Shown here piece by piece: positions 6,051-28,430 of a DNA stretch of 64,000 nucleotides (position 1 is its first letter; each line of letters starts with the position of its first letter). The position numbers and the translations under genes were made by a program. Source of the DNA: Candidatus Micrarchaeota archaeon (GTDB lineage: Archaea > Micrarchaeota > Micrarchaeia > Micrarchaeales > CABMGC01); NCBI GenBank assembly GCA_021818925.1, contig JAKASU010000001.1, positions 68,036-132,035 on the forward strand, read 5' to 3'. Under the pieces are notes generated by a model. That model did not search any database, had not been told where the DNA came from, and saw only the letters and a list, made by a program, of their open reading frames with translations.

Positions 6051-7577
6051 TTACTGACCTCCCGTGATGCGGTAAAGTGTGCCTGTCACCCCCGAGGAAT
6101 TGAAGACTTCTATCTGCGAAACTGACACAGAACAGTTTTCCTCAGCTCTATATATCATTGAGCTGAGGCTCTTGTTGACAATTACAAAAATGTTCGGTTG
6201 TGCAGTCATTAGTATGAACGCGTTTTTCGGCGGATTGCACGGTATGGAGTAGAGAGGCAGCGCGTCTATGCTCTGATTCTTTGTGATGAAAAACCTGATG
6301 AGCGTTGCCTGCAAATCTACGTTGTCTCCCCACATGTACAAACTTACGTTCTCCCCGCGGAGAGCGGTCGCTAGGTATGAAACCGCAGAGTAGTAGACCA
6401 CCCATTGGCCTTTGATCTGATTGTTAAGTTGGTAGAGCACTGAGTAAGCTGGGACGGAATAAAACAACGAAGACGAAACCAGAACCAATACTGCAATTGC
6501 GGCATATGCCCTTGACTTTTTTTTCAGGCTCTCGTAGACAGCCAACACTGTGTATGCCGCAAGTATCGAGATGGGCATGAGTATCATAGCAAAGAACCTA
6601 TCTACAAGCACAATGGGCGAATACGCAAAAAGCGAGTATGTACCAAAGACGTAATAGAGGAAAACCCCCAAACTTATGGTTGCCAGAACCCAGAACTTGT
6701 CTTTCTTATATAGAGAGATTGCGCTTCCGGTGAGCGAGAGCAGTATGACTGGACCCAAAGAGTACTGCTCGACAGGCCGCACATACTGGAAATTGGCAGG
6801 CGGTATGGGGCTGATCAAGGCAAGCGCCATGCCAATGTTGTTTGGCAGCGTCGATAGCGCATTCGGCAATATCTTCTGAAACTGCACTACGCCCGAAATC
6901 GGATTGCCTGTGTACGCCCAAAAAGCATAAAAGAATCCCGCAAGCGCAATAACCACACCCACTGCAAAATATGCAAACATCCTTTTGTGTTCGTCATCTT
7001 TCCTCAGCCAGAGCGCTGCGAACAACGCAAGCGTGTAAAAGAAGACAAACAAGAACCCGTCAAGCCTTACCGATACTGCGAAGCCGGTTATAAGCCCCGA
7101 TACCAGAAATAGGTAATCCTTCTTAGTGTCAATGGCGTAGAGGAGCACCAACACGGCCAGCGCGACGCACAATCCAAGGAGCGTGTCTGGCAAAATTCTT
7201 GTAGCGTACCCGACTACAGTGGGAGACGTCGCTGCGAACACCGCAGCCAGCACAGCTACGGAGTTGCCTCCCAGCTTCCTGCCAGTAACGAAAGTGGCAA
7301 CGACCAAAAGCAGGTACTCGGTTATCCCCGGCAGCACCGAAGCCGTCAGGTTGAACCCAAAAGTTCCGAAAAACAACGAAAGCACATATATGAATCCGAG
7401 CGAGTAGGATTCTATATAGGTCTGCGGTATAAAGTCGCCCTGGAATATCTGATGCACAAATTGGATGTAGCCTCCGTCGTCGTATACTATATCAGGGCCG
7501 GAAAACAATTGCATGATAAGCGCTAGCCCGATCACAAGGATTACTGCAAGCAGGCAAAAAGCTTGCCAGTCCTTCAT
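6051..7577 (-). CDS. GT-C fold membrane glycosyltransferase (ArnT/PMT-like)
   Basis: 508 aa with at least 10 predicted TM helices, an acidic DD pair in the first loop (VYDDGGY) and a C-terminal soluble domain. No WWDYG motif, so it is not AglB. Confidence 0.6.
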   Translation of the reverse strand: MKDWQAFCLLAVILVIGLALIMQLFSGPDIVYDDGGYIQFVHQIFQGDFIPQTYIESYSLGFIYVLSLFFGTFGFNLTASVLPGITEYLLLVVATFVTGRKLGGNSVAVLAAVFAATSPTVVGYATRILPDTLLGLCVALAVLVLLYAIDTKKDYLFLVSGLITGFAVSVRLDGFLFVFFYTLALFAALWLRKDDEHKRMFAYFAVGVVIALAGFFYAFWAYTGNPISGVVQFQKILPNALSTLPNNIGMALALISPIPPANFQYVRPVEQYSLGPVILLSLTGSAISLYKKDKFWVLATISLGVFLYYVFGTYSLFAYSPIVLVDRFFAMILMPISILAAYTVLAVYESLKKKSRAYAAIAVLVLVSSSLFYSVPAYSVLYQLNNQIKGQWVVYYSAVSYLATALRGENVSLYMWGDNVDLQATLIRFFITKNQSIDALPLYSIPCNPPKNAFILMTAQPNIFVIVNKSLSSMIYRAEENCSVSVSQIEVFNSSGVTGTLYRITGGQ

Positions 7578-8267
7578 TCAATCATCACCAACCTGCGCCT
7601 TCTTATTGGCAAGTCTTGCCCTTTCTATTAGATAAGTCCCATTGTTTCCTGAAACTTCAGTATGCGCTTTTTCTATCACTAATTTTTCCTTGAACATGGG
7701 CGCATCTAGTACCAGAGTTTCGGCCTCCCCTCCTTCAAAAACAAGATTTACGCCACGTTTCCTGTTCGCTTCTTTGAGCTCTTCGATGACCTTTCCATCT
7801 ATGCGCTTTCCTAGCAGGGACGGACTCAAGCCTTCCGCAGACACGGACGTTATTATGGCTTCGTACCTGGAAGCTATCTCATTAAGTTCTTCTACCGGGT
7901 CGATGCGCCACAGTGGGGCGATGTGCTCGATCCCAAGCTTCCTTGCAATCGCGTTTATCCTGTCCGCCTGGTATTTGCTGGACGTCGCTCCGGTGACAAG
8001 AAGTTTGACGTCGTTCGACCTTAGGGCTTCCTCAAGGTCGTCGAGCTCCTCTTCCTTCCTGCCCTCTGTGTCTGAGAAAACGTGTCGCATTCCAAGAGCC
8101 TCTGCCTGCAGCTCCGTAAGCTCCACATTCGGATAGTGGAACATGTAGCTCTCCCTGTTCGCGCTCCTCATAGTTATCAAAAGATCTACGCCTATCCCGA
8201 GCCCCACCGCCTTGTGGAGCGCGAGCGTCGAGTCCTTGCCCCCGCTAAACAGGCAGGCGCTGCTCAT
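7578..8267 (-). CDS. dph6: Diphthine-ammonia ligase-like PP-loop ATPase (MJ0570/Dph6 family)
   Basis: SGGKDS PP-loop at the N-terminus. The ATG at 8267 is preferred over the TTG at 8282. It overlaps the atpD 3' end by 23 nt. Confidence 0.8.
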   Translation of the reverse strand: MSSACLFSGGKDSTLALHKAVGLGIGVDLLITMRSANRESYMFHYPNVELTELQAEALGMRHVFSDTEGRKEEELDDLEEALRSNDVKLLVTGATSSKYQADRINAIARKLGIEHIAPLWRIDPVEELNEIASRYEAIITSVSAEGLSPSLLGKRIDGKVIEELKEANRKRGVNLVFEGGEAETLVLDAPMFKEKLVIEKAHTEVSGNNGTYLIERARLANKKAQVGDD

Positions 8268-8880
8268 TTTCCGCACTCTCAATCTTCTTCTTTACGTGCT
8301 TAAGCGCGGAGAAGGTGTCGCGCTCCATCTCTTCTAGCCTGAAGGAGATGTAGTCACGCTCCTTCTTCAGCTTAGGTAGAAGTATGTATTCCAGGGCGTT
8401 GACCCTTCTCTTCACCTTGTCTATCTCCAGAATCAGCCGCCTTAGGCTCTGCTCCCTCTTTGCCGTGTCTATTATAGTCTCCTTTACTCCGCTGAACGCA
8501 TCGCTGACGTCGCTTACAGCGGTGCTCGTCTGCAAAGTCCACAGCGCAGCGTGTTTTTCCTGCACGTCCTCTATCTCAGGTATCCTGACCCCCATCACGT
8601 TCTTTATGCCCACGTTTATGCCAGACGAATCCTTCATGTAGAGGCTCGCCTGCTCCAGTTCAAAATCGCCCACAAACGTAGAGGCGAGCACCGTGGTCTT
8701 GTACGCTGCTTGAAGCATCTCGTAAAGGCGCGAGCGGTCGCTGCTAGACTGCTTGAGCATACTAAAGAACTCTATTACAAGCGCCTCTCTCTTCTTCTTA
8801 AGTAGTGAGTGGCCTTTGCTGGCTAGCGTCATCTTCTTCCTGGTGTTTATCAGGTTCATCCTTGTAGGGTTCGTAGTCAC
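8245..8880 (-). CDS. atpD: A-type ATP synthase subunit D
   Basis: [22 protein letters not shown]-terminus. The GTG start overlaps the atpB stop (GTGA). Confidence 0.9.
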
Positions 8881-10316
8881 TGTCTTACCCCCTTCTTCAT
8901 ATCCTTCTCTTTCTCCTTCTCCGCCTCAGCCTTGACCCTGTAATTGAGATGGCGCTTCTCTATGTGTTCTCTCTTTATTCTCGTGAGCTCCTTCTCAGGC
9001 AGCTCGGACAAGAGCTCCCAGCCGATGTCAAGCGTCTGCTCTATGGTCCTGTCATCGTAATCGCCCTGGGCTATGAACCTCTTCTCGAAATCGTCGCCGA
9101 ACTTGAGGTAGAGCTTGTCGCTCTCGCTCAGCGCCTCCACCCCTATTATCGCGCTCAGACTCCTAGACTCTTGCGCCCTCGCATACGCCCCGTAGAGTTG
9201 GTCAGCAACTCCCCTGTGGTCCTCCCTGGTCTTGCCCTCGCCTATCCCGTTGTTCATCAGCCTCGAAAGAGAGCCGAGCGGATTTATCGGAGGATAGATG
9301 CCCTTGTTGTTAAGCTCCCTGCTCAGGAAGATCTGGCCCTCAGTTATGTAGCCGGTAAGGTCCGGGATCGGATGGGTGATGTCGTCTCCGGGCATCGTGA
9401 TTATGTTCAGCTGCGTTATGCTGCCCTTCTTGCCCTCCACAATCCCGGCCCTCTCGTAGATGCTCGCGAGGTCAGTGTACATGTAACCGGGGTAGCCTCT
9501 CCTCCCAGGTACCTCCTCCCTTGCGCTGGCCATCTCGCGCAGGCTTTCGCAGTAGTTGGTCATGTCGGTGAGTATGACAAGCACGTGCATGCCCCTCTCG
9601 AAGGCAAGGAACTCCGCGGTTGTGAGCGCAAGCCTAGGAGTGAGTATTCGCTCTATGCTCGGATCATCGGCGAGGTTCATGAAAGCTGCAGTTCGCTTGA
9701 GCGCTCCTGTCTTCCTGAAGTTGTCTATGAAGAACGATGCGTCGTCGTATGTTATGCCTATCCCTCCGAAGACAACAGCGAAGCTCTCGCTCTTCCCAAG
9801 CACTTTCGCCTGTCTTGCGATCTGTGCCGCGAGCTGGTTGTGCGGAAGCCCCGAGCTCGAGAAGATGGGCAGCTTCTGCCCGCGCACCAGCGTCATGAGA
9901 CCGTCTATTGATGATACGCCTGTCTGTATGAAGTCGCTCGGCATGCGCCTCGCTACCGGGTTTATGGGCTCACCGTTTATATCCTTCTTCTTCTCCACGG
10001 CGTATGCGGCCTTCGTGTCCTTCGGTCTGCCCTGTCCGTCGAAGACCCTGCCAAGCATCTCCTCGCCCACGCCGAGCTTGAACGTCTCGCCGAGGAAGCT
10101 GACGCTAGTAGACTTTATGCTTATCCCGCTCGTGGGCCCAAAGACCTGTACGACAGCGAACTTGTCCGTGGTCTCTATCACCTGCCCAAGCCTCTCCTCG
10201 CCGTTTTCCAGCCTTATCTTCGTTATCTCTCCGTATCCGGCGTTCTTCACCGAGTTTATGACCATGAGCGGCCCCGAAACCTTGCCTATCGTCCTATACT
10301 CCGCCTCGAACTTCAT
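8877..10316 (-). CDS. atpB: A-type ATP synthase subunit B
   Basis: 479 aa with the typical regulatory-subunit sequence (GPLMVI..., [20 protein letters not shown]). Confidence 0.95.
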
Positions 10317-12097
10317 CAGCTTTTCACCCCTTCTTCCTCAATCCCGTGCTCTGCCACGAGCTTCTTGAACTGCGAATCCGTCTCCGAGATTATCTTCTTG
10401 CCCTCGGCCTCTACTGCTTCCTCCTTCAGTTCCTTCATCCTCGCTATCTTCTTCACCACGTCAAGCGCCATTATCATGTCTGTGCCCACGCCCTTTCCCG
10501 CAGCCTCCTGCGCCTTCTCCCCGAAGTGCAGCATGGCGTTCATCATGAGGTCCTGCTTCTTCAGGCTCGTGTACGCGTCAACTTCGTCGTATGCGTTCTG
10601 CCTCAGGAAGTTCTCCCTTATCAGCCTGCCGACCTCTAGCAGCACGCGCCCAGTGTCGGGCAGCGCGTCCTCCCCAACGAGCTGCACTATGTCCTTCAGT
10701 TCGGCCTCGCGCTGCAGCAGCTTCATGGCGCTAGCCCTGTCAACCTCGAATCTCTCTCCGATGTTCTCGTCGTACCATTTCTTCAGCGCGCCAAGATAGA
10801 GCGAGTAGCTGTTCAGCCAGTTTATAGATGGGAAGTGCCTGGAACTAGCGAGCGCTGCATCGAGCGACCAGAAGGTCTTCACGACCCTGAGCGTCCCTTG
10901 CGATACCGGCTCTGAGAGATCGCCTCCTGGAGGCGATACCGCGCCTATCACGCTCACAGAGCCGATGCTTCCTCCCAGCGTCTCGACCCTGCCCGCACGC
11001 TCGTAGAAATCCGCTATTCTCTTTGGTAGGTACGACGGATAGCCCTCTTCTCCAGGCATCTCCTCAAGCCTCGTCGATATCTCCCGCATCGCCTCGGCCC
11101 ATCTCGAAGTCGAGTCGGCCATCAGCGCGACGTCGTAACCCATGTCTCTGAAGTATTCGGCTATCGTTATGCCAGTGTAGATGCTTGCCTCCCTCGCGGC
11201 CACGGGCATGTTGCTAGTGTTCGCAATAAGCACAGTCCTCTCCATCAGCGGCTTTCCTGTTTTTGGGTCCTTCAACTCGGGGAATTCTGTTAGCACCTCC
11301 GTCATCTCATTCCCACGCTCTCCGCAGCCCACGTATATGACTATGCTGGCATCGGAGTACTTGGCCAATTGGTGAAGGCTTACGGTTTTTCCGGCCCCGA
11401 AAGGCCCCGGTATGCCTGCCGTTCCGCCCTTCGCAACCGGGAACAGAGTGTCGATTACCCTCTGGCCGGTAATCAGCGGCACCTCAGCCGCGATCTTGCT
11501 CTTGAACCTCGAGCCCTGCCTGACCGGCCTGGTCTGCACCATGCTTATCTTCACAAGCCTGCCGCCGCTCTTCACCGCCGCAACAGTGTCGTCTACGCTG
11601 AACCTGCCTGACTTGATGCTCTGCACTGTGCCGCTCACTCCGGCGGGCACCATTATGTAGTGCTTTATCAGCCCCGTCTCGTCCACGTAGCCGAGTACCG
11701 AGCCTTCGCCGACATGAGAGCCCCTCTTGATCTTCTTGTCTGCGTGGAACTCCCACTTCTTTTTCCTGTCTATCGCCTCGACGTCGCTTCCCCTCTTGAT
11801 GAACGTGCCTGACTTGGCCTTTATTGCGGTGAGCGGCCTCTGCACCCCGTCGAAGATCTGCGAGAGTATGCCAGGGCCGAGCTCTACAGAGAGCGGCTTG
11901 CCGGTAGACACTACCTTCTCCCCCGGCCTGAGGCCGCTGGTGTCCTCATACACCTGGATTATCGCCTTCTCGCCCTCCAGCTTGATTATCTCGCCTATTA
12001 GCTTGCCGGTTCCGACGCGCACGACGTCGTACATGCTGGCTCCGAACATATCGTTCGCGACCACAAGCGGACCTGAGATCCTTTCTATCGAGCCCAA
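10316..12097 (-). CDS. atpA: A-type ATP synthase catalytic subunit A
   Basis: 593 aa with Walker [10 protein letters not shown]. The length is normal, so there is no intein. TTG start. Confidence 0.95.
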
Positions 12098-12105
12098 ACC
12101 ATCAC

Positions 12106-12453
12106 CTACTTCTTCTCCCCCATTATGTCTATGCCCACGGCCCTAAGTATGAGCCTGCGCAGCGTGCCCTCGCCTACCTGCTTCTCATTGTATCCCGCTA
12201 CAGATATGACCAGCGGGTCTATCGAGTTCTCCATCTTGTATCTCACTCTCCTGTCCTTTATCGAGCCCGCGAGGCCCTCGGTGATGACTATCACACCCAC
12301 GTCGTTCCTCTCGAAGAGCGAACGAAGGAGCTTCTCCGCATCCTCCGGCCCTTCAGCAGTGTAGCTTTCCTTCACGCCTGCGAGCTTCATTCCGAGCGGC
12401 AGCACCTCTCCGCCTATAACTACTATCTTCTTCTTGTTCATCACTTTAACCAC
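12106..12453 (-). CDS. atpF: A-type ATP synthase subunit F
   Basis: 115 aa with KIVVIGGEVLPLGMKLAGV, in the canonical operon position. Confidence 0.85.
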   Translation of the reverse strand: MVKVMNKKKIVVIGGEVLPLGMKLAGVKESYTAEGPEDAEKLLRSLFERNDVGVIVITEGLAGSIKDRRVRYKMENSIDPLVISVAGYNEKQVGEGTLRRLILRAVGIDIMGEKK

Positions 12454-13505
12454 GATATCATTCCCCTGATCTCATCGTTGCTGAGACCATAGCCCTTGCC
12501 CTTCATGAGCACCCGGAGCGTGAACACCTCTATCTCCTTGAGGTATAGGAACGCGATAAGCACACCGAACGAGAGGACGCTGTGCCTGACCCCTCGCAGC
12601 GCGCTCGCGAAAACCTCGTTCATAATCGCTATCTCAAAGATCAGGAGCGGCTTTGTCTTACTCTCCCTGTACTCCTCAACCGCCTTCTTCAGGTTGAAGA
12701 TTTTCACGTTCTCCGCAAGCGACTCGGGTGTCCTGCCGGTCCTGAAGAGCGCCTCAAGCTTTATCGAATCCAAGCTGCCGTTCTGAAACAGATAGTTTGA
12801 GACGTGCGCAAAATCGCTTCCGTGCTTCTTCGCCTCTAGAAGCGTGAGTATGTTTCTCATGTCTATCCTTTTCCTTATCAAGGCCGCGGCCTCAGGGTCT
12901 ATCATTGCAAGCCTTCCTATCGTTGCTCCCAGGCGCACGTAGTAAGCGCGCTCAAGCGCTCCGCTCGCCTCGGCAGCGCTGCCCGTTTTCTTGTAGGTAT
13001 CCATCGCCTGTTTTATCTGTGCAGAGTAGGGGGTCTTGAGCATAAGCTTCTCCAGCACGCCCTCGACATTTTTTGAGGCCATCGCCTCCTTTATCGTCTC
13101 AGGACGTGCGTACTGTGATTCTATCAAGTATCTCGAGATGTCGCTGAAGTCCTTCCCGGTGGAGGCGGCTTCAAGCGCAATCTTGATGTTGCCTATGTCC
13201 CAGATCCCGGCTACTGCTACTATCAGCGATCTCTGGTCCTTCGGCGCGATGGATATGAGCTTGCTTGTCTCCCTGCCTTGGTTGCTGCTCAGCGCAAAGT
13301 CGATCAGTGTGTCCATCGCCTTGACACCGCCCAGCTTTTCTACGTCGGCCTTGTAATCGGTCTGAAGAAGCATTGCCGCTATGCTTTCCGGCTCCTTTGC
13401 CGCGAGCATCCTCTCGAGCGCGTCCTTGCGTATCAGTTTCGACTCCATCGCCTTCACTCGCGTGTTAGAGTATGCGTATTTCATAGCAGATCCGAGTCCC
13501 GCCAT
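12441..13505 (-). CDS. atpC: A-type ATP synthase subunit C (V-type d homolog)
   Basis: 354 aa. Called from its operon position between E and F and from the YSNTRVKAMESKL N-terminus. Confidence 0.85.
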   Translation of the reverse strand: MAGLGSAMKYAYSNTRVKAMESKLIRKDALERMLAAKEPESIAAMLLQTDYKADVEKLGGVKAMDTLIDFALSSNQGRETSKLISIAPKDQRSLIVAVAGIWDIGNIKIALEAASTGKDFSDISRYLIESQYARPETIKEAMASKNVEGVLEKLMLKTPYSAQIKQAMDTYKKTGSAAEASGALERAYYVRLGATIGRLAMIDPEAAALIRKRIDMRNILTLLEAKKHGSDFAHVSNYLFQNGSLDSIKLEALFRTGRTPESLAENVKIFNLKKAVEEYRESKTKPLLIFEIAIMNEVFASALRGVRHSVLSFGVLIAFLYLKEIEVFTLRVLMKGKGYGLSNDEIRGMISWLK

Positions 13506-19923: not shown

Positions 19924-21132
19924 ATGGAGAAGCCGAGCATCACGATAATAGTGCTCGATACCCTGAGGCTTGACACGTTCAACAGCCTTAGCGGGCAGAA
20001 GGGACGCGAGCTCTCGCGACTTGGCGACTTCGTAACGCTCCAGGGTTGCATAGCCCCGTCATCATGGACTCTTCCCTCACACGCGTCCCTGTTCACCGGC
20101 CTCTATCCGAGCGAGCACGGCGCACACGAAACCAAGACTGTGAAGGCCCTTGACATAGCCAAGATCTCGCTCAAGAAGCGGACGTTCGTAAGCGACCTCA
20201 AGTCGATGAGGTACAAGACCTACGCAATATCCGCCAACCCCTACGTGCACCCGGTGTACGGCTTCGATGAATTCGACTCGTTCACAGAGGAGTCATACTT
20301 CACTGACATATGGGGCAGCGTGGTGGAGATAGCGGATAGGCTCAAGCCAAAGGTAGCAAAGTACAGGAACGAATATGGTAGCGACCTGCTCAAGCTCTCT
20401 TCAGCGATGCTCAAGGAGGATCCGAATCTGTTCTTCGAGACCGCGCTAAGCGGTCTTGCACTTACCCCCATCGCAGCGGTCAAGAAGATGAAAGCAAGGC
20501 TGATAGACGGCTGGCCGATAGAGAAAGGCGGGAGGAACACGGTAGCGAGAGTCAGGCGGATGAGTATGAAGAGGCCATTTTTCCTCTTCGTTAACCTGAT
20601 GGAGGCCCACGACCCCTACACTGTCTCAAAGAAGAAGGCCATGAGCTGGGTCACGCCGTTTCTGAAGGAGAAGACAAGCGAAGCGACGCTCAGCCTGTGG
20701 GAGAAGCTGTACTGGAAGGCGGCGCAGAGGGGCTACGCATACGCGTACAGCATAATCGAGGACGTGATCGAGAGGTTCGGGGACAACCAGATCGTCATAT
20801 TGACCAGCGACCACGGCCAGGAGTTCGGCGAGCACGGCTTCATAGGCCACGGCACAGTGCTCGATGACGAGGTTGTCCGAGTTCCCATGGCCGTGCTTCT
20901 GCCAAAAGGCTTCGGAAGGGGCAAGCGCAGGCAATACTCTTCGCTCGTTAATGTCAGGAGGTTCCTGTCTGCGGCGCTTTCAGGGAAAAGGGACGCGATA
21001 GCAGAGCTTTACAGCAAAGAGGTAAGGGCGGAGAGCTTCGGAGTTCCCGCAGCGATATCGAGGATCGCTGGCATAGACGTGCGCAAGCTCAGGGCGCACG
21101 AGAAAGCAACGAAAAGAAGGTTCAGGAGCTAG
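19924..21132 (+). CDS. Alkaline-phosphatase-superfamily (sulfatase-like) hydrolase/transferase
   Basis: IIVLDTLRLD metal-binding start and SWTLPSHASLFTG. I saw no C/S-x-P-x-R formylglycine signature, so this is probably not a true sulfatase. Confidence 0.7.
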   Translation: MEKPSITIIVLDTLRLDTFNSLSGQKGRELSRLGDFVTLQGCIAPSSWTLPSHASLFTGLYPSEHGAHETKTVKALDIAKISLKKRTFVSDLKSMRYKTYAISANPYVHPVYGFDEFDSFTEESYFTDIWGSVVEIADRLKPKVAKYRNEYGSDLLKLSSAMLKEDPNLFFETALSGLALTPIAAVKKMKARLIDGWPIEKGGRNTVARVRRMSMKRPFFLFVNLMEAHDPYTVSKKKAMSWVTPFLKEKTSEATLSLWEKLYWKAAQRGYAYAYSIIEDVIERFGDNQIVILTSDHGQEFGEHGFIGHGTVLDDEVVRVPMAVLLPKGFGRGKRRQYSSLVNVRRFLSAALSGKRDAIAELYSKEVRAESFGVPAAISRIAGIDVRKLRAHEKATKRRFRS

Positions 21133-22358
21133 TCCAGCGTGCCTATCCCTGCGAACTTGCTGTCGCTGTAGAGTACAAATCTCCCAAGCTCCCTTGTAAC
21201 GTCATAGCTCTCCACCGGCACCTTTCTTACAAGCCGAACTTCGGCCTCAACCGCCTCAAGCGGCTTCGCTTTCTTGGTTCTGACTATCTCTCCTGTGGTC
21301 GTGTCAATGTCGTGCAGTATCTTCACACTCTTGCACGCGATCTCGGTGCCGTTGAACCTGGCAAGAGTTCTCTTTCCGAACCTGCCTGTGACGAATATCT
21401 TTAACTTTATCTTGTCTTTCAACTCTGGTTTGTTTGCGCTGCTTGCGATTACAGATCCTCGCAGTTCTCCGTCAATCACCCTGTCCAGCGCAAGCGCAAC
21501 ATTCTCTCCAATTACCCCCGTCCTGACCTTCTTGCCTTTCACCACTATTCCCTCCACTGTGGCGTTGCTCCCGAGCGGCAACACGCTTATTCTCTCTCCA
21601 ACGCTAACGCTGCCATTGACCACTCTTCCAACTATGAGTTCGCCTTTATCACCGGATATTGTGCCCTGTGTTATTATCCTCAGAGCGCCTTCATGCTTCT
21701 TGCCGCCTTTCCTGGCCTCGTCATAAAGAACGTCTATGAGCGGCCTTCCCCTGTACCACTTGATCTTCTGGCTCTTCTTAACAAGGTTCTCGCCTTTGTA
21801 CGCAGATATGGGCACGAAATGAACGTTCTGCTTTGCAAAGCCTATCTTGAATATGAATCTGCTGAGCTCTCGCTCTACGTCTTCAAACCTTTCCTGCGAG
21901 TAGCCAACGGTGTCCATCTTGTTGACTGCAACGATAAGCCTGTCTATGCCCAGCATCCGCGATATGAACAGATGCCTCTTGGTCTGGTCCCTTACCCCCT
22001 CGTCCTGCTTCGCCGATACTAGGAGCAGGGCAATCTCCCCGTAAGATGCGCCGCTGATCATGTTTTTTATGAGCTCCTCGTGCCCCGGCACGTCGATCAG
22101 CGCGAACGCAAGACCATTGTGCTTTATCTCGGCCCTGGTGGTGTCGAAGGTCATCTCGCCGAGCCTCTCCTCTGCGAAGCTGTCGAGAATAAACGCAGGC
22201 TCGAAAGGTTTGTGCATACGCTTGCTGTACATCTCAGCTTCGCGGATTCGCGCCTGCGTGGCAGCGCCGGTCTGCATCAGCATGCTGCCGATTAGCGTGG
22301 ACTTTCCATGGTCCTTGTGCCCAAGAAGTGCTACGCTCTTTACAATCATCAGAATCAC
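21129..22358 (-). CDS. cysN: Sulfate adenylyltransferase subunit 1-like translational-type GTPase (CysN/EF-1alpha-like, no APS kinase domain)
   Basis: G1 GHKDHGKST, G3 DVPGH, G4 NKMD. It overlaps cysD by 4 nt. Confidence 0.75.
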   Translation of the reverse strand: MILMIVKSVALLGHKDHGKSTLIGSMLMQTGAATQARIREAEMYSKRMHKPFEPAFILDSFAEERLGEMTFDTTRAEIKHNGLAFALIDVPGHEELIKNMISGASYGEIALLLVSAKQDEGVRDQTKRHLFISRMLGIDRLIVAVNKMDTVGYSQERFEDVERELSRFIFKIGFAKQNVHFVPISAYKGENLVKKSQKIKWYRGRPLIDVLYDEARKGGKKHEGALRIITQGTISGDKGELIVGRVVNGSVSVGERISVLPLGSNATVEGIVVKGKKVRTGVIGENVALALDRVIDGELRGSVIASSANKPELKDKIKLKIFVTGRFGKRTLARFNGTEIACKSVKILHDIDTTTGEIVRTKKAKPLEAVEAEVRLVRKVPVESYDVTRELGRFVLYSDSKFAGIGTLD

Positions 22359-23143
22359 ATGTAGCCCAGGGCGCGCAATTTCTGCATCACGTATTCGCGC
22401 TCTTTGTCCATGCTTCTACCAGATCTCTCTTCCGTCTTTGTCGTCTCAAGCTCTTTTATTATATCATCAATGTTTTTTGCGTTGGATTTGAGCGGCACGG
22501 TACAGTGGGTGCAGCCAAGGCTCCTATATCTGTATCCGTTCCTTGAGAAGTAAAGCGGGTTGACAGGTATGTGCTCCTTCTTTACGTATGACCAGATGTC
22601 CACCTCATTCCAATCCAAAAGCGGGTGTACGCGTATGTGGCCTTTTGTGTCGAGCTTTGAGGCGTAGTCGTCCCACAGCTCAGCAGGCTGGTCCTTGTAG
22701 TTCCACTTGAAGTTTTCGTCCCTGGGCGACATGTACCTCTCCTTAGCCCTTATCCCATGCTCGTCCCTCCTTATCGAGACTATGAGAGCGTCAAAGCCAT
22801 ACTCCTTCATTATCTTCTTCAAGGTTTCTGGCTTGTTCTTGCCGCAACACGCGGCCCCTACCAGATCAGGCTTGATCTCGCTCTGGCCTACTATGACCTT
22901 GAAGTTCCATTTCTTCGCCAGATACTCACGGAAAGCGTAGGTTTCTGGAAAATCAATCGAATTGTCGATGTGAATGACCGGGAAGGGTATCTTTCCGAGG
23001 AACGCTTTCCTTGTGAGTGCAAGCATCGTGGTTGAGTCCTTGCCCATGCTCCACAACGCCGCGACGTTTTTAAACTTCAGCTTCGTCTCGCGTATTATGT
23101 ATATGCTCTTCTCTTCCAAAGTTTTGAGGTCTTGTTTTATCAT
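22355..23143 (-). CDS. cysD: Sulfate adenylyltransferase subunit 2 (PAPS-reductase-like PP-loop)
   Basis: SMGKDST PP-loop, RRDEHGIRAKER, RVHPLLDWNEVDIW. The tail TEERSGR...KLRALGYM is collinear with E. coli CysD as I recall it. Confidence 0.85.
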   Translation of the reverse strand: MIKQDLKTLEEKSIYIIRETKLKFKNVAALWSMGKDSTTMLALTRKAFLGKIPFPVIHIDNSIDFPETYAFREYLAKKWNFKVIVGQSEIKPDLVGAACCGKNKPETLKKIMKEYGFDALIVSIRRDEHGIRAKERYMSPRDENFKWNYKDQPAELWDDYASKLDTKGHIRVHPLLDWNEVDIWSYVKKEHIPVNPLYFSRNGYRYRSLGCTHCTVPLKSNAKNIDDIIKELETTKTEERSGRSMDKEREYVMQKLRALGYM

Positions 23144-23446
23144 CTAATCCACCAGATTCGAAACCCTAAGCCCTTCCAAATATATCGTGGCGCCGCGCAG
23201 CTTCTTGCCCTCCTTCTTGAATATGGGCACCGAGGTGACCTGCCTGAACTTAGAGTCGTAAAGCTCAACAGAGGACTTCGCAAGGTCCTGCATCTTGCTC
23301 AGTTTTCCCTCGTTCGCGAATATGGCCTTATAGTATACTATGCCGCTGCCCTTCAGCGCCTTCGAGAACTTCTCCCAGTTCTGGTCAGTCGGCTCCTTCC
23401 AGAGCGTGCTGGCTATCTCCTTTATGTTGGTCTTTGCCATAGGCAT
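23144..23446 (-). CDS. Hypothetical protein (100 aa) in the RHH-cysDN operon
   Basis: The ORF fills the space between the RHH and cysD genes exactly (0 and 6 nt gaps). No recognisable motif. Confidence 0.55.
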   Translation of the reverse strand: MPMAKTNIKEIASTLWKEPTDQNWEKFSKALKGSGIVYYKAIFANEGKLSKMQDLAKSSVELYDSKFRQVTSVPIFKKEGKKLRGATIYLEGLRVSNLVD

Positions 23447-23452
23447 CCTCCA

Positions 23453-23677
23453 CTAAGCGTAACCAAGCGCCCGCAGTTTCTCCAGGACGCCCTCTGTATC
23501 CTTCTTGCCCGCCTTCCTCATCTCCATCTCTGATGTCGTCTCCCTCAGTATATAGGTCACGTAGTCCGACACGGAAGAGAAACCAGTGTTCTTTATCCTC
23601 TCCTGCAGCCTCTGGAATAGCGGCGCCGGTATTGTTATGGTCGTATACTTCCTCTTTATGCCAGCATGCTTCACCAT
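23453..23677 (-). CDS. Ribbon-helix-helix (CopG-like) protein with a CysD-like C-terminal tail
   Basis: The N-terminal TTITIPAPLFQRLQERIK is RHH beta-strand plus helix. The C-terminus EKLRALGYA mirrors the CysD C-terminus QKLRALGYM. Confidence 0.7.
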   Translation of the reverse strand: MVKHAGIKRKYTTITIPAPLFQRLQERIKNTGFSSVSDYVTYILRETTSEMEMRKAGKKDTEGVLEKLRALGYA

Positions 23678-23720: not shown

Positions 23721-23729
23721 CTTTACGCT
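23721..23729. repeat. Target-site duplication, left copy (CTTTACGCT)
   Basis: An identical 9-mer lies at 28422-28430. Both copies abut the outer ends of the 18-nt inverted repeats. Confidence 0.8.
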
Positions 23730-23747
23730 GGCTTTGTTGATTTAGTC
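23730..23747. repeat. Terminal inverted repeat, left (GGCTTTGTTGATTTAGTC)
   Basis: Perfect reverse complement of 28404-28421. Confidence 0.85.
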
Positions 23748-23786
23748 CAAAACTGTTGATTAAGTCCTCAAATCGTTGAAGAAGTC
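23736..23786 (+). repeat. Three direct 12-nt subterminal repeats GTTGAnnnAGTC (23736, 23755, 23775)
   Basis: GTTGATTTAGTC, GTTGATTAAGTC and GTTGAAGAAGTC at 19-20 nt spacing, immediately upstream of the TATA-like box CTTTTAAGAA (23790-23799) of the nuclease gene. Confidence 0.7.
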
Positions 23787-23818
23787 AAGCTTTTAAGAAT
23801 TGGGTTCGATAGTTCTTT

Positions 23819-24475
23819 ATGCCCTTAAATATGGCAGACCTGCAGGATACTTTGAAAGAAATGAAGAACCTGCATATCGCTGGTAGACGAGGAAGCTATA
23901 ATCAAGCAGTAAGAACCCAGCAATTCATCAGAAAGCTACACTCTTATGCAATAAGGGAATTTGCAAGAGTTGGAATAAAGAAAACCAGAGACATAGACAT
24001 TCTGACAGAAAAGAAGATTCTTGGCTCGTTCAAACAGAAGAACGTGGATATTCTCGTTTTACACAAGATTACAGGGGCTATGATTATCGTGTCGGTTAAA
24101 AGCCTTATGTCAGCGATAACCTCAAACTTTACCAATACTTTCGAGGCTATGATAGGCGATGCCTCTACGATGCACGAGAGATATCCTTATTTGATTATGA
24201 CTGAGCTATTCCTGTTTCCGAAAGAGGTTCTGAATCGCTCCGAGACCTATCCGTTGGACTACTACTCAAATCTGTTAAGCAAGATAAACAAGAGGCAGTC
24301 TCAGATAGATGACAATAAAAAATATGAGAGGATAGGCTTGGTAGTTGCTGACTTTAACAAAACGCCACTTCCAACAGTATATCATTCGCCAAAGGAAAGT
24401 AAAGACTTATACATCGAGACCTTCTTTGATGATGTCAAGAAGATATACGAATATAGATACGAGGATTTGCTCTAA
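23819..24475 (+). CDS. Candidate type II restriction endonuclease (PD-(D/E)XK-like)
   Basis: 218 aa. NVDILVLHK...IIVSVKS fits a D...(E/S)xK nuclease core. It is convergent with the methyltransferase and overlaps it by 4 nt. No family was recognised by eye. Confidence 0.5.
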   Translation: MPLNMADLQDTLKEMKNLHIAGRRGSYNQAVRTQQFIRKLHSYAIREFARVGIKKTRDIDILTEKKILGSFKQKNVDILVLHKITGAMIIVSVKSLMSAITSNFTNTFEAMIGDASTMHERYPYLIMTELFLFPKEVLNRSETYPLDYYSNLLSKINKRQSQIDDNKKYERIGLVVADFNKTPLPTVYHSPKESKDLYIETFFDDVKKIYEYRYEDLL

Positions 24476-26400
24476 ATAAGCAGTCCGTATTTCTTTATCA
24501 AGAAGTCATTTATCTTACTCTGATTGCTCTCTGATTTGAGGAATGTCTTTTCTTTCTCTGTAAACACAGGCATCTTGAAGCCTTCAAGTATCTTCTTATT
24601 CACTACCCAGAACTCGTTCCTTATTTTCTTAGCCTGCTTGGTTATGTAATACCAAAACACATTCGAGTTCAAGACCTTGATTAACCACTTGCCATCTTTT
24701 TTCGTAAGATAGCAGTAGCCCGCTATAAAAAGTGCTTCATCATTTATCAGCTCGAATCTCGGCTCTGGCATCATAGTCGGGCATACGAGTTTCTCTCCTC
24801 TTGCGTTGTAGCCCTGAACTCTCCCATACGCATACCAGCTACCATATTCTTTTACTCTTTCCTGCCCCTTGTCTCTCTTCATAAGTTCTGGTTTTATGGC
24901 TTTCAGATACTGATAAGCAGAAGGATACCTCTCTTTCAAGAGAGCCTCCTCCAATACTGAATATCGGTCGCCTTTCAATCTATATGGGAAGATTATCCTA
25001 TCGTAAAGTATCTTTACTTTCTTTGACTTTATCTTGTTAGCAAGAAGGATAGGTCTTGTTATGCTTTTTTCTATGAAATAGTCCTGCCCAGAATAAGTTT
25101 TGTGCAGGTATCTTTCATCTCTGCCATTATTCAGCAAGTATAAGTCATCACTAAGTGTCGCAACTCCAATTTTCACAGGATAGAGGTCTCCGAGCCTTAT
25201 GGGCTGCTGTGCTATTTTACTGAGGTTCTGGTTGTCTCGATGCCCATTTATCACTATCTTGTCTTCTGGCAAATCTTCATACTTTTCCTTCCTGAACTTT
25301 ATCTCGCTTAGCTCTTGCATTTCTTTAGGTTGATATATTTTGTAATACTCGAACGTGTCTTTTGGTTGCTTGTCGAGAGTTATTATGGCAGTATAGGTTA
25401 TGACATCATTAAACACTTGATGGTAATTGAAATCAAGTATCTTCTCGATATATCTGTTCTTTCTAAGTATCTCTCGAATCGTCTTTCCTGCCTCAGAATC
25501 AAAGAAGCTCTTCGATACTATGAAGGATACCCTGCCTTCTTTCTTGATTAGTTTGAGCGATAGCTCGATGAAGGGAATATACAAGTCCACATTATACTTG
25601 TATGCCGATAGCCATCTCTTCTTGATTACCTGCCTCGTTTTCACATCGAGGTTCTGTATCCTTACATAAGGCGGATTTCCTATCACAAAATCGAATCCGA
25701 ACTTTGGACTTCTTGTGATTATCGTGCTTGTATCCTGAATGCCGAAAACCTCTGGAAATTCGAGTTCCCAATTTGCCTTTAGACTATCCCTGACAATAAG
25801 ATTGAATTTTATCTCTTCCTTATCCTCTTTGTTCAGTAGTGCAAGAAGAGACAGAATCAGTTTTGTTCTCTCCACACTTCTTTTCGATATGTCGCACCCG
25901 TAGATTCTGTTTTCAAGTATTTCTGTGAGCGGTTTGTTGGTGAGCTTGTGCAATCTCTCCGTAGCCGAGACAAGAAACGCACCGCTACCGCAAGCAGGGT
26001 CACATACGAGACCGTCTTTCGTGATAGTAGTTTCGACTATGTAGTCCACTACGCTCGTCGGCGTGTAGAAAGCACCATTTATCTTTCTCTCCTTCTCCTC
26101 GATTATGAGTTCAAAGACTCTCTCTATGTTCTTAAGAGAGATGGATTCCTTATTAAGCTCCAGAAATCTTAACAGGTCTTCGCATACGCCTTCGGTTGCC
26201 CTTTTAATCTTGTCAAGAACAAGCTCATTTCTCAGAACCCGCAATTCGTTGCTTTGAACAAACAAGTAGACAAGCCCAGATTCAATCTCATCTATGCTAT
26301 GCTTCTCTATCAAGTCTGACATATTCATAGGTTTAAGTTCCATCTTCCCCTCTTTCCCCTTACTCTTCTCTTTCAATAACATTATTTGAGCGTCATTCAT
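24472..26400 (-). CDS. N6-adenine DNA methyltransferase, gamma class (Eco57I/TaqI-like, with a C-terminal target-recognition domain)
   Basis: Motif X GAFYTPTSVV, motif I DPACGSGAFL, motif IV IGNPPY. The ATG at 26400 is preferred over the TTG at 26412. Confidence 0.9.
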   Translation of the reverse strand: MNDAQIMLLKEKSKGKEGKMELKPMNMSDLIEKHSIDEIESGLVYLFVQSNELRVLRNELVLDKIKRATEGVCEDLLRFLELNKESISLKNIERVFELIIEEKERKINGAFYTPTSVVDYIVETTITKDGLVCDPACGSGAFLVSATERLHKLTNKPLTEILENRIYGCDISKRSVERTKLILSLLALLNKEDKEEIKFNLIVRDSLKANWELEFPEVFGIQDTSTIITRSPKFGFDFVIGNPPYVRIQNLDVKTRQVIKKRWLSAYKYNVDLYIPFIELSLKLIKKEGRVSFIVSKSFFDSEAGKTIREILRKNRYIEKILDFNYHQVFNDVITYTAIITLDKQPKDTFEYYKIYQPKEMQELSEIKFRKEKYEDLPEDKIVINGHRDNQNLSKIAQQPIRLGDLYPVKIGVATLSDDLYLLNNGRDERYLHKTYSGQDYFIEKSITRPILLANKIKSKKVKILYDRIIFPYRLKGDRYSVLEEALLKERYPSAYQYLKAIKPELMKRDKGQERVKEYGSWYAYGRVQGYNARGEKLVCPTMMPEPRFELINDEALFIAGYCYLTKKDGKWLIKVLNSNVFWYYITKQAKKIRNEFWVVNKKILEGFKMPVFTEKEKTFLKSESNQSKINDFLIKKYGLLI

Positions 26401-26545
26401 ATTAAACACCAATCTTGTGCGTGGCTAACGCTAACAGAAGCGACATCACCCAGAAACAGAATGGCTAATTTATTCGGCGTTTTGCCATACGCACTTTGAC
26501 CGATAACATTAAGAAAGTAAAGGAATTTATTCTTTGCTCCGCTTC

Positions 26546-26791
26546 TCATTTTTTCGCCTTAATCTTCATCGCCTTCTTTACGTCTTTAGCATAAGGCTTA
26601 TTCCAATAAGGAGACTTGCAGGTAGGATTAGGGCACACAGTAGGCAGTTCATCAGTTCTGGGTATCCATTCGTGCCCACATCTTGTGCATTTCAATTTAT
26701 GTTCGAATTCAAAACCACAACGAGGGCACTTAATCATATTGAGGGGTTCGATGCTATTGCTTTTAACCCTTTCGTTATTGACTTTCGCCAT
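26546..26791 (-). CDS. Small zinc-ribbon protein (81 aa)
   Basis: CPRCG..x..CTRCG and CPNPTCKSPYW cysteine pairs, with a basic C-terminus. Confidence 0.6.
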   Translation of the reverse strand: MAKVNNERVKSNSIEPLNMIKCPRCGFEFEHKLKCTRCGHEWIPRTDELPTVCPNPTCKSPYWNKPYAKDVKKAMKIKAKK

Positions 26792-26875
26792 ATATACTTC
26801 GCCTCAACCTTTATAGTATATCATTCAAGGTATATAAAGCTATCTCCTTTGTATCGGACTCCTATAACTATACCA

Positions 26876-26893
26876 ATAGGTATATATACCTAT
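26876..26893. promoter_or_regulatory. Perfect 18-bp palindrome ATAGGTATATATACCTAT over the transposase promoter region
   Basis: Read directly from the sequence. It lies 33-50 nt upstream of the transposase ATG and is TATA-rich. Confidence 0.4.
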
Positions 26894-26925
26894 AAGTATA
26901 TAGTAATATTGAAAGGAATGGTCTT

Positions 26926-28143
26926 ATGGAATACCAAGAACTCTTGCAGATGCGTAAGGAAAGGGGCTACGAGATAGCCAAGAAGGAGAAGATAGTGCAG
27001 AAAAATGGAAAATGGCTCGTGCCGAGTGCTACGAATCCACACAAAACTTATGAAGTGGTCTTGACAATAAGCGGAGCAGAATGTAATTGCCCTGACTTCA
27101 CGGAAAGAGGGATAAAGTGCAAGCACGCCTTCGCTGTTTATTGGACTCTTACCAAGACCAGAAACAAAGATGGTTCGACAACCATAACAGAAACTAAACG
27201 CATTACTTACCCGCAGGATTGGAAAGCTTACTCAGAGGCAACTGAACAGCAAAAAGCTCTCTTCCAGAAACTTCTGAACGACCTGTGCAATACAATAGAT
27301 GAGCCAGCATACACTTTTGGCAGACCGAGAATGTCTATGCGGGATATGGTCTTCAGCTCCGCTTTGAAGGTCTACACTACCTTCTCTCTGCGACGTTTTG
27401 CTACGGATAGCAAAGAAGCACAGAGCAAGGGCTACATAAAGAAAACACCTGATTATAGCACGGTAGCCAAATATATGGAAAGCTCAGAGCTAACGACGAT
27501 ATTGAAAGAGATACTACAAATATCCGCCCTACCTCTCAAGTCCATAGAAAACGACTCATTCAGCATAGACTCCTCTGGTTTTAGCCCTAACAAATTTAGC
27601 CGATGGTATGACTATAAATGGGGCAGAGAAAGAGACCGCAAGCTATTCTACAAGGCTCACCTGCTAACAGGAAACAAAACCCACATAGTTTGCGGAGCGG
27701 AGATAACAACGCAGTATATCCAAGACGTGACTATGCTTCCGCAATTAGTTCAGGAAGTCAGTAAGAACTTCCACATAGGAGAACTCGCTGGAGATAAGGC
27801 ATATAGTAGTAGGGGAAACGTAGACGTTCTTGACAAACTGGGCATAATGCCACGCATACCTTTCAACGAGAGAGTGACGGCAAACCCAAGAGGGCATAGT
27901 CACATCTGGCGAGACCTATACAATTACTTTACCTATCACAGAGAGGCGTTCCTTGAGAAGTATCACCAGCGAAGCAACATAGAGTCTGTATTCTTTATGA
28001 TAAAGAGCAAGTTCGGGGATTATGTAAGGAGCAAGACGGACACAGCGTGCATCAACGAGATTTACCTCAAACTGATTTGCCACAACCTGTGCTGTGTAAT
28101 ACAGGAGACGTTTGAGCTTGGGATACAGGCTAACTTCTCGTGA
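26926..28143 (+). CDS. DDE transposase (IS4/IS5-superfamily DDE_Tnp_1-like) with an N-terminal SWIM zinc finger
   Basis: SWIM CNCPDF...CKHAFAV. DDE candidates are IDSSGF, GDKAYSS and YHQRSNIESVFFMIKSKFG. Confidence 0.85.
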   Translation: MEYQELLQMRKERGYEIAKKEKIVQKNGKWLVPSATNPHKTYEVVLTISGAECNCPDFTERGIKCKHAFAVYWTLTKTRNKDGSTTITETKRITYPQDWKAYSEATEQQKALFQKLLNDLCNTIDEPAYTFGRPRMSMRDMVFSSALKVYTTFSLRRFATDSKEAQSKGYIKKTPDYSTVAKYMESSELTTILKEILQISALPLKSIENDSFSIDSSGFSPNKFSRWYDYKWGRERDRKLFYKAHLLTGNKTHIVCGAEITTQYIQDVTMLPQLVQEVSKNFHIGELAGDKAYSSRGNVDVLDKLGIMPRIPFNERVTANPRGHSHIWRDLYNYFTYHREAFLEKYHQRSNIESVFFMIKSKFGDYVRSKTDTACINEIYLKLICHNLCCVIQETFELGIQANFS

Positions 28144-28350
28144 TTACTTCTTGCTTCTCTTGAAGTGCCTTATCCCATCTACTATATCCGCCACCTTCGT
28201 TATTTTTTCCTGCAAATCTTCTGGGCTTGAAGGTATTGGATTCTGCATATCGTTTGGCAGATACCTATGTGTGATAAAGAATACTCTGCCGTTCTTTCCG
28301 TTGCTCCAGCTTATCAAGATTCGGTCTGATTCGCCGACCTTTTTAGCCAT
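28144..28350 (-). CDS. Hypothetical 68-aa protein inside the right transposon end
   Basis: The ORF abuts the transposase stop codon, tail to tail. Repeats lie upstream of its start. No motif recognised. Confidence 0.35.
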   Translation of the reverse strand: MAKKVGESDRILISWSNGKNGRVFFITHRYLPNDMQNPIPSSPEDLQEKITKVADIVDGIRHFKRSKK

Positions 28351-28370
28351 AGAAACCCCATTCTTAAATT

Positions 28371-28415
28371 GTTGATAAAGTAATAAAAATGTTGATAAAG
28401 TCAGACTAAATCAAC
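28371..28415. repeat. Right-end copies of the GTTGAnnnAGTC repeat (two direct at 28371 and 28391, one inverted at 28404)
   Basis: GTTGATAAAGTA and GTTGATAAAGTC, then GACTAAATCAAC. The last two form a near-palindrome. Confidence 0.65.
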
Positions 28416-28421
28416 AAAGCC
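28404..28421. repeat. Terminal inverted repeat, right (GACTAAATCAACAAAGCC)
   Basis: Perfect reverse complement of 23730-23747. Confidence 0.85.
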
Positions 28422-28430
28422 CTTTACGCT
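28422..28430. repeat. Target-site duplication, right copy (CTTTACGCT)
   Basis: Identical to 23721-23729. Confidence 0.8.

Follow-up and report, generated by a model that had tools for sequence, protein, structure and literature searches.

A 4.7-kb IS5/IS903-like transposon that moves as a unit carries a predicted type II restriction-modification system in Micrarchaeota

Restriction-modification (R-M) systems are known for their high mobility, but the vehicles that carry them have rarely been caught in the act. Here we analyzed a 64,000-nucleotide stretch of archaeal DNA (GenBank assembly GCA_021818925.1, contig JAKASU010000001.1, positions 68,036 to 132,035; hereafter the window) in which positions 23,721 to 28,430 had been read, from the sequence alone, as a cargo transposon carrying a complete type II R-M system. 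Described systems resemble this element in part. The insertion sequence (IS) IS903 generates 9-bp target-site duplications (TSDs). It is about 1.06 kb long with one gene and no passengers, whereas the present element spans 4.7 kb and holds four to five passenger genes. Transporter IS (tIS) and other unit transposons (ISfinder, TnCentral) have a single transposase and passengers inside one pair of inverted repeats (IRs) and move as a unit with a TSD, and the element described here has the same organization. Derivatives of the tIS kind usually appear sporadically in IS families; in the clade to which our element belongs, cargo is instead the rule (of 48 bounded elements, 47 are longer than 2.6 kb), and that cargo is mostly R-M. 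Our reading, in which we have high confidence, is that the element is an autonomous, recently active unit transposon of the tIS kind, from an IS903-like branch of the IS5 family.

Other described elements share single features with it. Eukaryotic MULE/Mutator elements combine a DDE transposase and a SWIM finger with 9-bp TSDs and subterminal repeats; their catalytic domain is IS256-related and their SWIM finger is C-terminal. We detected no homology between them and the present transposase beyond the SWIM motif, so this is a resemblance only. Tn7 uses the multi-protein TnsA/B/C/D machinery with att-site or RNA-guided targeting, makes 5-bp TSDs and is much larger. One account of Tn7-like transposons describes cargo rich in defense systems, including R-M (Benler et al. 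2021, PMC8649781). Compared with Tn7, the present family has one IS5-type transposase and no evident single target site. In Xanthomonas oryzae and Neisseria gonorrhoeae, R-M units with terminal IRs and a short TSD were defined against an empty site (Furuta, Abe & Kobayashi 2010, PMC2853133); these are isolated cases with 8-bp TSDs in which the transposase is absent or degenerate and the agent of mobility unknown. The present element differs from those units in that its cognate transposase is intact, a second insertion is documented and its family is large. A literature search, with ISfinder and REBASE outside its scope, returned no description of SWIM-IS5/IS903 cargo transposons or of their R-M habit. 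The family is apparently undescribed, R-M genes on transposon-like units and Tn7-like defense carriers being concepts already known.

The element is bounded by perfect 18-bp IRs, GGCTTTGTTGATTTAGTC at 23730-23747 (plus strand) and its exact reverse complement at 28404-28421 (minus strand). Each is abutted on its outer side by the 9-bp direct repeat CTTTACGCT (23721-23729 and 28422-28430). The segment between the outer IR ends measures 4,692 bp and is AT-rich, with a guanine-plus-cytosine (GC) fraction of 0.409 compared with 0.535 in the remaining window (flanks 0.52-0.58, interior about 0.40). With up to three mismatches permitted, the IR matched the 64 kb only twice, and 0 of 100 dinucleotide shuffles of the window yielded two matches. 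Because the IR pair is perfect, the TSD abuts it and no shuffle reproduced it, the IRs and TSD are real and non-random. A tblastn search found one transposase gene in the window, and at the same tolerance no inner IR copy lies beside that gene. A composite transposon was considered and rejected, since the window contains a single transposase gene and no IR copies beyond the two. All of these features, namely the IR pair, the flanking 9-mer, the AT-richness, the lone transposase and the lack of an inner IR, had been noted in the sequence-only reading and were borne out. The same holds for its gene list (a convergent pair of a 218-aa protein and a methyltransferase, an 81-aa Zn-ribbon open reading frame (ORF) and a 68-aa ORF), for its archaeal host, which is a member of the Micrarchaeota, and for the position of the element 44 nt upstream of the start (23677) of a ribbon-helix-helix (RHH) gene. 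The start of thrS lies 165 nt from the opposite end. Two features had escaped that reading, namely a pair of additional inner-IR-half copies per end and a 50-aa ORF situated between the genes for the Zn-ribbon protein and the methyltransferase.

With the flanking threonyl-tRNA synthetase and RHH proteins as queries, exact-protein look-ups led to independent assemblies from the same population. An empty site, in which the left flank, a single CTTTACGCT and the right flank are contiguous and the flanks are identical to those in the window, was present at seven loci (L002, L003, L007-L011) in six assemblies (ENA ERZ27237490, ERZ27237285 and ERZ27237444; NCBI GCA_027364175.1 and GCA_027342905.1; JGI 3300039716). 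The occupied site recurred in ERZ27237336, DRR872537 and GCA_027364155.1; contig k141_301647 of ERZ27237336 terminates precisely at the last base of the right IR, as expected for a polymorphic or repeated element. A second context emerged when the 218-aa protein and the transposase served as look-up queries. There, contig k141_139756 of ERZ27237319 holds the 4,692 bp at 100% identity with TGGAGGGGC on both sides, a perfect 9-bp TSD. Thus, the whole 4.7 kb moves as a single unit, as shown by the empty sites with a single CTTTACGCT together with the identical copy, which has a TSD of its own at the second site. The movement was very recent, since the two 4.7-kb copies show 100% identity and near-identical strains differ in whether the chromosomal site is occupied. 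The sequence-only reading had proposed to look for an empty site with a single 9-mer and for further IR copies elsewhere, and both were found.

These data bear directly on the possibility that an ordinary IS of about 1.5 kb sits beside a pre-existing R-M island, so that only the transposase part is mobile. The transposase does lie at one end of the segment, and homologs of the R-M pair occur outside such transposons (L115, L116). However, there is no internal IR even at three mismatches, the empty sites lack the entire 4,692 bp, the second site holds all of it with its own TSD, and 47 of the 48 bounded non-viral members of the family measure 2.7-9.0 kb. The empty sites and the second-site copy had already refuted this possibility, and we regard it as hardly credible. 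The sequence-only reading, which had likewise favored the whole 4.7 kb as the mobile unit over an IS beside an R-M island, had named three outcomes that would count against it: (i) other IR copies always bracketing only a 1.4-1.6 kb transposase unit, (ii) relatives carrying the R-M genes at this locus without IR or TSD, and (iii) a repeat pattern that proves to be a conserved regulatory palindrome in genomes lacking the element. All three came out in favor of the element.

Around the second insertion (L106:1-1947 and 6640-13361) lie ORFans together with genes for an Arc-like protein, a serine resolvase and a tyrosine integrase; the GC fraction there is 0.54-0.59, and there is no similarity to the window. 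This context is probably an uncharacterized plasmid-like, virus-like or integrated element of Micrarchaeota. Scans of JGI metagenomes with the left end of the element and with the flank of the second site gave no matches, and a scan of IMG/VR for the exact 18-nt IR gave two chance matches only, neither with a transposase. The integrase and resolvase genes near the second copy, along with the low GC of the element relative to its flanks, would fit a genomic island inserted by integrase-mediated site-specific recombination, or an artefact of assembly. Against this, the element contains no integrase, its two insertion sites share no sequence (CTTTACGCT versus TGGAGGGGC), terminal IRs with 9-bp duplications are the signature of a DDE transposase, and the same junctions recur in ENA, NCBI, JGI and Logan assemblies. 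An island or artefact of this kind is effectively refuted.

The unit transposon encodes a 405-aa transposase (26926-28143, plus strand) with an N-terminal SWIM zinc finger (residues 42-73) and an IS5/IS903-type DDE domain (DDE_Tnp_1, PF01609; E = 1.4e-17, residues 213-388), which confirmed by Pfam the SWIM and DDE domains read earlier from the sequence. In an alignment of 24 homologs, the SWIM ligands C53, C55, C65 and H67, the DDE triad D215, D290 and E353, and the YREK residues Y346, R349, E353 and K360 (spacing Y-(2)-R-(3)-E-(6)-K) are all invariant. The best NCBIfam model was transpos_IS5_2 with 123.6 bits, compared with 37.8 bits for transpos_IS4_1 (cutoff 115), which covered only C-terminal residues 337-389. 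The transposase aligned to that of IS903B over residues 132-364 at 24% identity (E = 3e-12). The fetched right end of IS903B is GGCTTTGTTGAATAAATC, with which the window IR shares the first 11 nt, the tip GGCTTTGTTGA and the 18-bp length; the family IR consensus is GGCTTTGT(T/G/A)nAAtAAGT. Because of the shared IR tip, the 18-bp IR, the 9-bp TSD, the transposase alignment and the best-scoring model, the element is best assigned to the IS5 family, with predicted IS903-like chemistry, and it further resembles IS903 in having a DDE_Tnp_1 domain with a YREK signature. The IS4/Tn5-like chemistry suggested by the sequence-only reading did not hold up, given the scores of the two models and the IS903-type IR tip. 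The element nonetheless does not qualify as a true IS903-group IS, given its additional SWIM domain, passengers, subterminal repeats and sub-threshold model score; the IS903 transposase, 322 aa as annotated in L096, is without the N-terminal SWIM region of about 130 aa. An ISEc28-like region (L093) was considered and set aside, being without GGCTTTGTTGA ends.

The inner half of the IR, GTTGATWWAGTC, occurs twice more at each end of the element at a spacing of about 20 nt. At the left end, the direct copies GTTGATTAAGTC (23755-23766) and GTTGAAGAAGTC (23775-23786) lie on the plus strand. A repeat search placed GTTGATAAAGTA (28371-28382) and GTTGATAAAGTC (28391-28402) at the right end, also on the plus strand; they share the orientation of the left-end copies and are therefore inverted relative to the right terminal repeat. 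This three-site layout is conserved in the family: one end carries the terminal repeat and two direct subterminal copies, at positions of about 7, 25 and 45, and the other carries two subterminal copies in the same genomic orientation, inverted with respect to its terminal repeat, at about -62, -42 and -17. Among family ends, the asymmetric three-site pattern, as such or mirrored, is the most frequent layout, and its conservation suggests that the two ends are functionally differentiated across the family. The repeat sequence varies between elements in step with the transposase, and the subterminal copies are putative additional transposase-binding sites. The present element has three such binding-site-like repeats per end; none was noticed in the IS903B copy, in which no search for them was made.

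The passenger genes include a convergent pair. A gamma-class N6-adenine DNA methyltransferase (MTase) is encoded at 24472-26412 on the minus strand (646 aa from a TTG start, or 642 aa from an ATG at 26400). It matches Pfam Eco57I (8e-36) and N6_Mtase (2e-23) and, over its full length, the PADLOC model MTase_II PDLC03335 (E = 4e-122), and it contains the motifs DPACGSGAF and NPPY (as GNPPY). Facing it is the 218-aa candidate type II restriction endonuclease (23819-24475, plus strand), which has no direct Pfam match, and for which phmmer and profile searches of PDB sequences gave nothing meaningful. This protein does match the PADLOC model REase_II PDLC03558 (E = 4.9e-14). A full HMMER search recovered 293 remote relatives; among 68 of them tested, 5 weakly match Pfam XhoI and 4 match HSDR_N_2. 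AlphaFold2 (AF2) modeled it at a mean confidence (pLDDT) of 95.9 with a 68-sequence alignment, whereas an alignment of 4 sequences gave an unusable model (pLDDT 41). The top Foldseek matches of the model were all PD-(D/E)xK nucleases (BbvCI, XisH, BstEII, BspD6I and Mus81), and all four close homologs of the protein are convergent with an Eco57I-type MTase. The PADLOC match, the Pfam matches of the relatives, the AF2 model, the Foldseek results and the convergent pairing with an MTase together argue that the 218-aa protein is a restriction enzyme. At the level that sequence analysis permits, the earlier claim of a complete type II R-M system is accepted: the MTase has the expected models and motifs, and a separate adjacent gene encodes a protein with an REase_II match and a PD-(D/E)xK-type fold.

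Homologs of the R-M pair were also seen outside the transposon family, at L115:169-4362 and L116:70-3317, with the endonuclease 55% identical. Those in L115 adjoin an IS6-type transposase and a helix-turn-helix regulator, and those in L116 adjoin an ORF that by eye, with no comparison to a family library, resembles a Bro-N domain. Because the same pair occurs outside the family, the R-M cassette itself appears to be promiscuous.

The MTase gene would be the last of three in an operon. Ahead of it lie an 81-aa Zn-ribbon gene (26546-26791, minus strand) and orf50 (26397-26549, minus strand; 50 aa), which overlaps the start of the MTase gene and the stop of the Zn-ribbon gene, in each case by 4 nt; these overlaps between neighbors point to a translationally coupled Zn-ribbon/orf50/M operon that is divergent from the transposase gene. 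Independent assemblies also call orf50 as a gene, and PADLOC found no family match for it. The 134-nt spacer between the Zn-ribbon and transposase genes is rich in palindromes (GGTATATA...TATATACC, 26814-26905) and is a putative divergent control region, with a comparable palindrome at the equivalent place in the sister element L109. The Zn-ribbon protein is a candidate regulator. Its gene is found in a subset of elements, always first in the M operon and divergent from the transposase, and homologs in L109, L059, L037, L053, L118 and L119 occupy this position ahead of MTases of differing class: gamma N6A here and in L109, C5 in L037, N6/N4-motif in L053 and L059, N6_N4 in L119 and D12 in L118. 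This constant position ahead of different MTases suggests that the Zn-ribbon gene acts as part of the backbone and not of the cargo, and that the R-M cassettes behind it are exchanged. We also observed uneven conservation, which is unexplained: one Zn-ribbon homolog is 83% identical, while the N-terminus of the adjoining transposase is 51% identical.

A search with the transposase gave 2,268 homologs (E <= 1e-3), mostly of about 405 aa, the nearest non-identical ones being 76-77% identical. Two of the listed homologs, from metagenome-assembled genomes of Micrarchaeales and Halobacteriota, are named "IS5 family transposase" by their source. A scan of GTDB species genomes gave 80 loci, both archaeal (Micrarchaeota, Aenigmatarchaeota, Woesearchaeota, Pacearchaeota, Methanomicrobia, Methanoperedens and Hadarchaeota) and bacterial (Acidobacteriota, Alphaproteobacteria, Planctomycetota and others). 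An element was counted as bounded if an exact 9-bp direct repeat lay directly outside an IR with at least 13 of 16 matches and the pair spanned the transposase. By this rule, 46 of the 80 genome loci and 4 of 6 loci on IMG/VR predicted viral contigs are bounded, for a total of 52 with the window element and its sister L109. Exact 9-bp TSDs are thus CTTTACGCT and TGGAGGGGC for the window element, plus those of 50 further elements. The 48 non-viral elements range from 1,802 to 9,041 bp (median about 4.4 kb); only one is smaller than 2.6 kb, and the others carry passenger genes, mostly R-M. The four viral-contig elements (L120, L121, L124 and L125) measure 3.3-3.9 kb with exact 9-bp TSDs, and transposons of this family may therefore ride on viruses. 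The sister L109 is 4,437 bp long with the TSD CAAAAATAA and has the same R-M-Zn-ribbon-transposase order at about 70-80% identity. TSDs of bacterial members (L042-L090) often have the form CCCnnnnGG (CCCTTGTGG, CCCTCCAGG, CCCGCGGGG, CCCTTGGGG, CCCTTGCGG), to be set beside TGGAGGGGC at the second site of the window element; TSDs of this type suggest a target preference.

Among 25 clustered elements (the window element and 24 loci), the only gene common to all is the transposase. We surveyed cargo by Pfam in two sets of 72 and 51 naively called cargo ORFs. Matches in the first and second set, respectively, were N6_Mtase 7 and 11, Eco57I 5 and 6, Methylase_S 4 and 2, and HSDR_N_2 3 and 5. Further matches were to C5 DNA_methylase (3), N6_N4_Mtase (3), D12 (2) and MT-A70 (1), with single matches to the restriction enzymes MunI, Eco47II, MamI, BamHI and DraIII, to HNH and to Vsr. 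Other conflict genes in the cargo included AEP-TOTE and AbiEii-type ATPases. An MTase was recognized by motif in 15 of the first 24 elements, and PADLOC on the pooled cargo brought up only MTase models again. GC was lower than in the flanks in 20 of 21 testable elements. In PLSDB and INPHARED we found only distant, partial IS5-type matches of at most 26% identity, and the family thus appears essentially absent from plasmid and phage collections of cultured organisms.

In the mechanism that we propose, the 405-aa transposase would recognize the 18-bp terminal repeats and two subterminal sites per end and would move the entire 4,692-bp segment, inserting it via 9-bp staggered cuts; the data fit either cut-and-paste or replicative transposition. 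The passenger would be the type II R-M system, comprising a PD-(D/E)xK endonuclease and a gamma-class N6-adenine MTase expressed from the Zn-ribbon/orf50/M operon. The R-M system would presumably pay for retention of the element through defense against viruses and post-segregational killing, and transposition onto a plasmid- or virus-like element would provide a route between cells.

Several observations weigh against this reading. The transpos_IS5_2 score falls short of the 140-bit equivalog cutoff, and identity to IS903B is only 24%. The Foldseek matches behind the endonuclease fold are weak (E >= 5.7e-3, TM score <= 0.39), and the activities of the R and M proteins and of the transposase are predicted ones. 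One passenger, orf68 (28144-28350, minus strand; 68 aa), has no homologs and is absent from L109; we therefore treat it as an unverified ORF, and it may not be a gene. Neighbors of the second insertion have no Pfam or PHROG match beyond the resolvase and integrase, so that replicon is only a candidate plasmid or virus.

Two variant junctions belong on the same side. In contig k141_335918 of ERZ27237345 (L099:3150-4598), the element is 100% identical over its first 2,846 bp and then, after base 2846 (window position 26575), diverges without explanation into low-GC DNA that is unrelated and holds ORFs of 157 aa and 171 aa and a partial ORF of 123 aa. This same base is also where Logan contigs L103 and L104 end, and thus a variant or nested insertion at base 2846 is present in several samples. 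We examined the L099 junction as a nested insertion and did not accept it: the likeness to a family IR is weak (13 of 16), no subterminal repeats were seen by eye (no formal search was made) and the other end is missing. In contig k141_890 of ERZ27237313 (L107:1-892), the right flank of the second site is combined with a different left flank (..CCATACTTGC beside the left IR) and there is no TSD. This junction would stem from an assembly chimera or else from recombination, between copies or between mobile-element variants. Both the ERZ27237345 and the ERZ27237313 junctions could be assembly chimeras or variants.

The element might also be non-autonomous or defunct, that is, mobilized in trans by a related transposase or an old inactive insertion. 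Several related elements do co-exist in these communities, and both the activity and the expression of the element are predicted ones. However, the transposase ORF is unbroken and retains every catalytic and SWIM residue, and the IRs are perfect; two 100% identical copies occupy different sites, and the chromosomal site is polymorphic. Moreover, from one sister element to another, the IR and subterminal sequences change along with the transposase. We consider a non-autonomous or defunct element improbable, though less so than an IS beside an R-M island, and retain the autonomous unit transposon.

At the left end of this transposon, a promoter-like box TTTAAGAATTGGGTT (23785-23806, plus strand) precedes the R gene and is conserved ahead of the R gene in L109; it is a putative promoter. 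A 22-nt inverted copy of the box, TTTAAGAATnGGGTT, was seen at 28354-28375, just ahead of orf68. Outside the element, the operon beside the insertion (21129-23677, minus strand) encodes the RHH protein, a 100-aa protein without a Pfam match, a PAPS_reduct-type CysD-like protein and a GTP_EFTU-type CysN-like protein, and it is kept in all empty-site assemblies. The sequence-only reading had raised the possibility that the insertion rewired the promoter of this operon. The 9-bp duplication retains the bases directly upstream of the TATA-like box, where a B recognition element would lie. Because these 9 nt are kept and thrS begins 165 nt off, rewiring is unlikely and little effect is expected.

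At the level of the family, a broader claim is possible, although we stop short of favoring it: the elements may form a large undescribed clade of IS5/IS903-derived unit transposons, with a SWIM and DDE transposase, asymmetric triple sites and 9-bp TSDs, that is a specialized vehicle for cassettes of R-M and other defense genes. Its range would take in DPANN and methanogenic archaea, Acidobacteriota, Alphaproteobacteria, Planctomycetota and predicted viruses, with one subgroup swapping cassettes behind the Zn-ribbon gene. If true, the long-inferred mobility of R-M systems would have a general mechanism that relies on a single protein.

For the element itself, a clean empty site, a second identical insertion, an intact cognate transposase and a sister with the same cargo are combined in one case, and the movement of R-M systems between genomes thereby becomes directly testable with a one-protein system. 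The SWIM domain and the asymmetric three-site ends represent a new architecture for the IS5 family. For DPANN archaea, the element points to active traffic of defense genes between the chromosome and a plasmid- or virus-like element.

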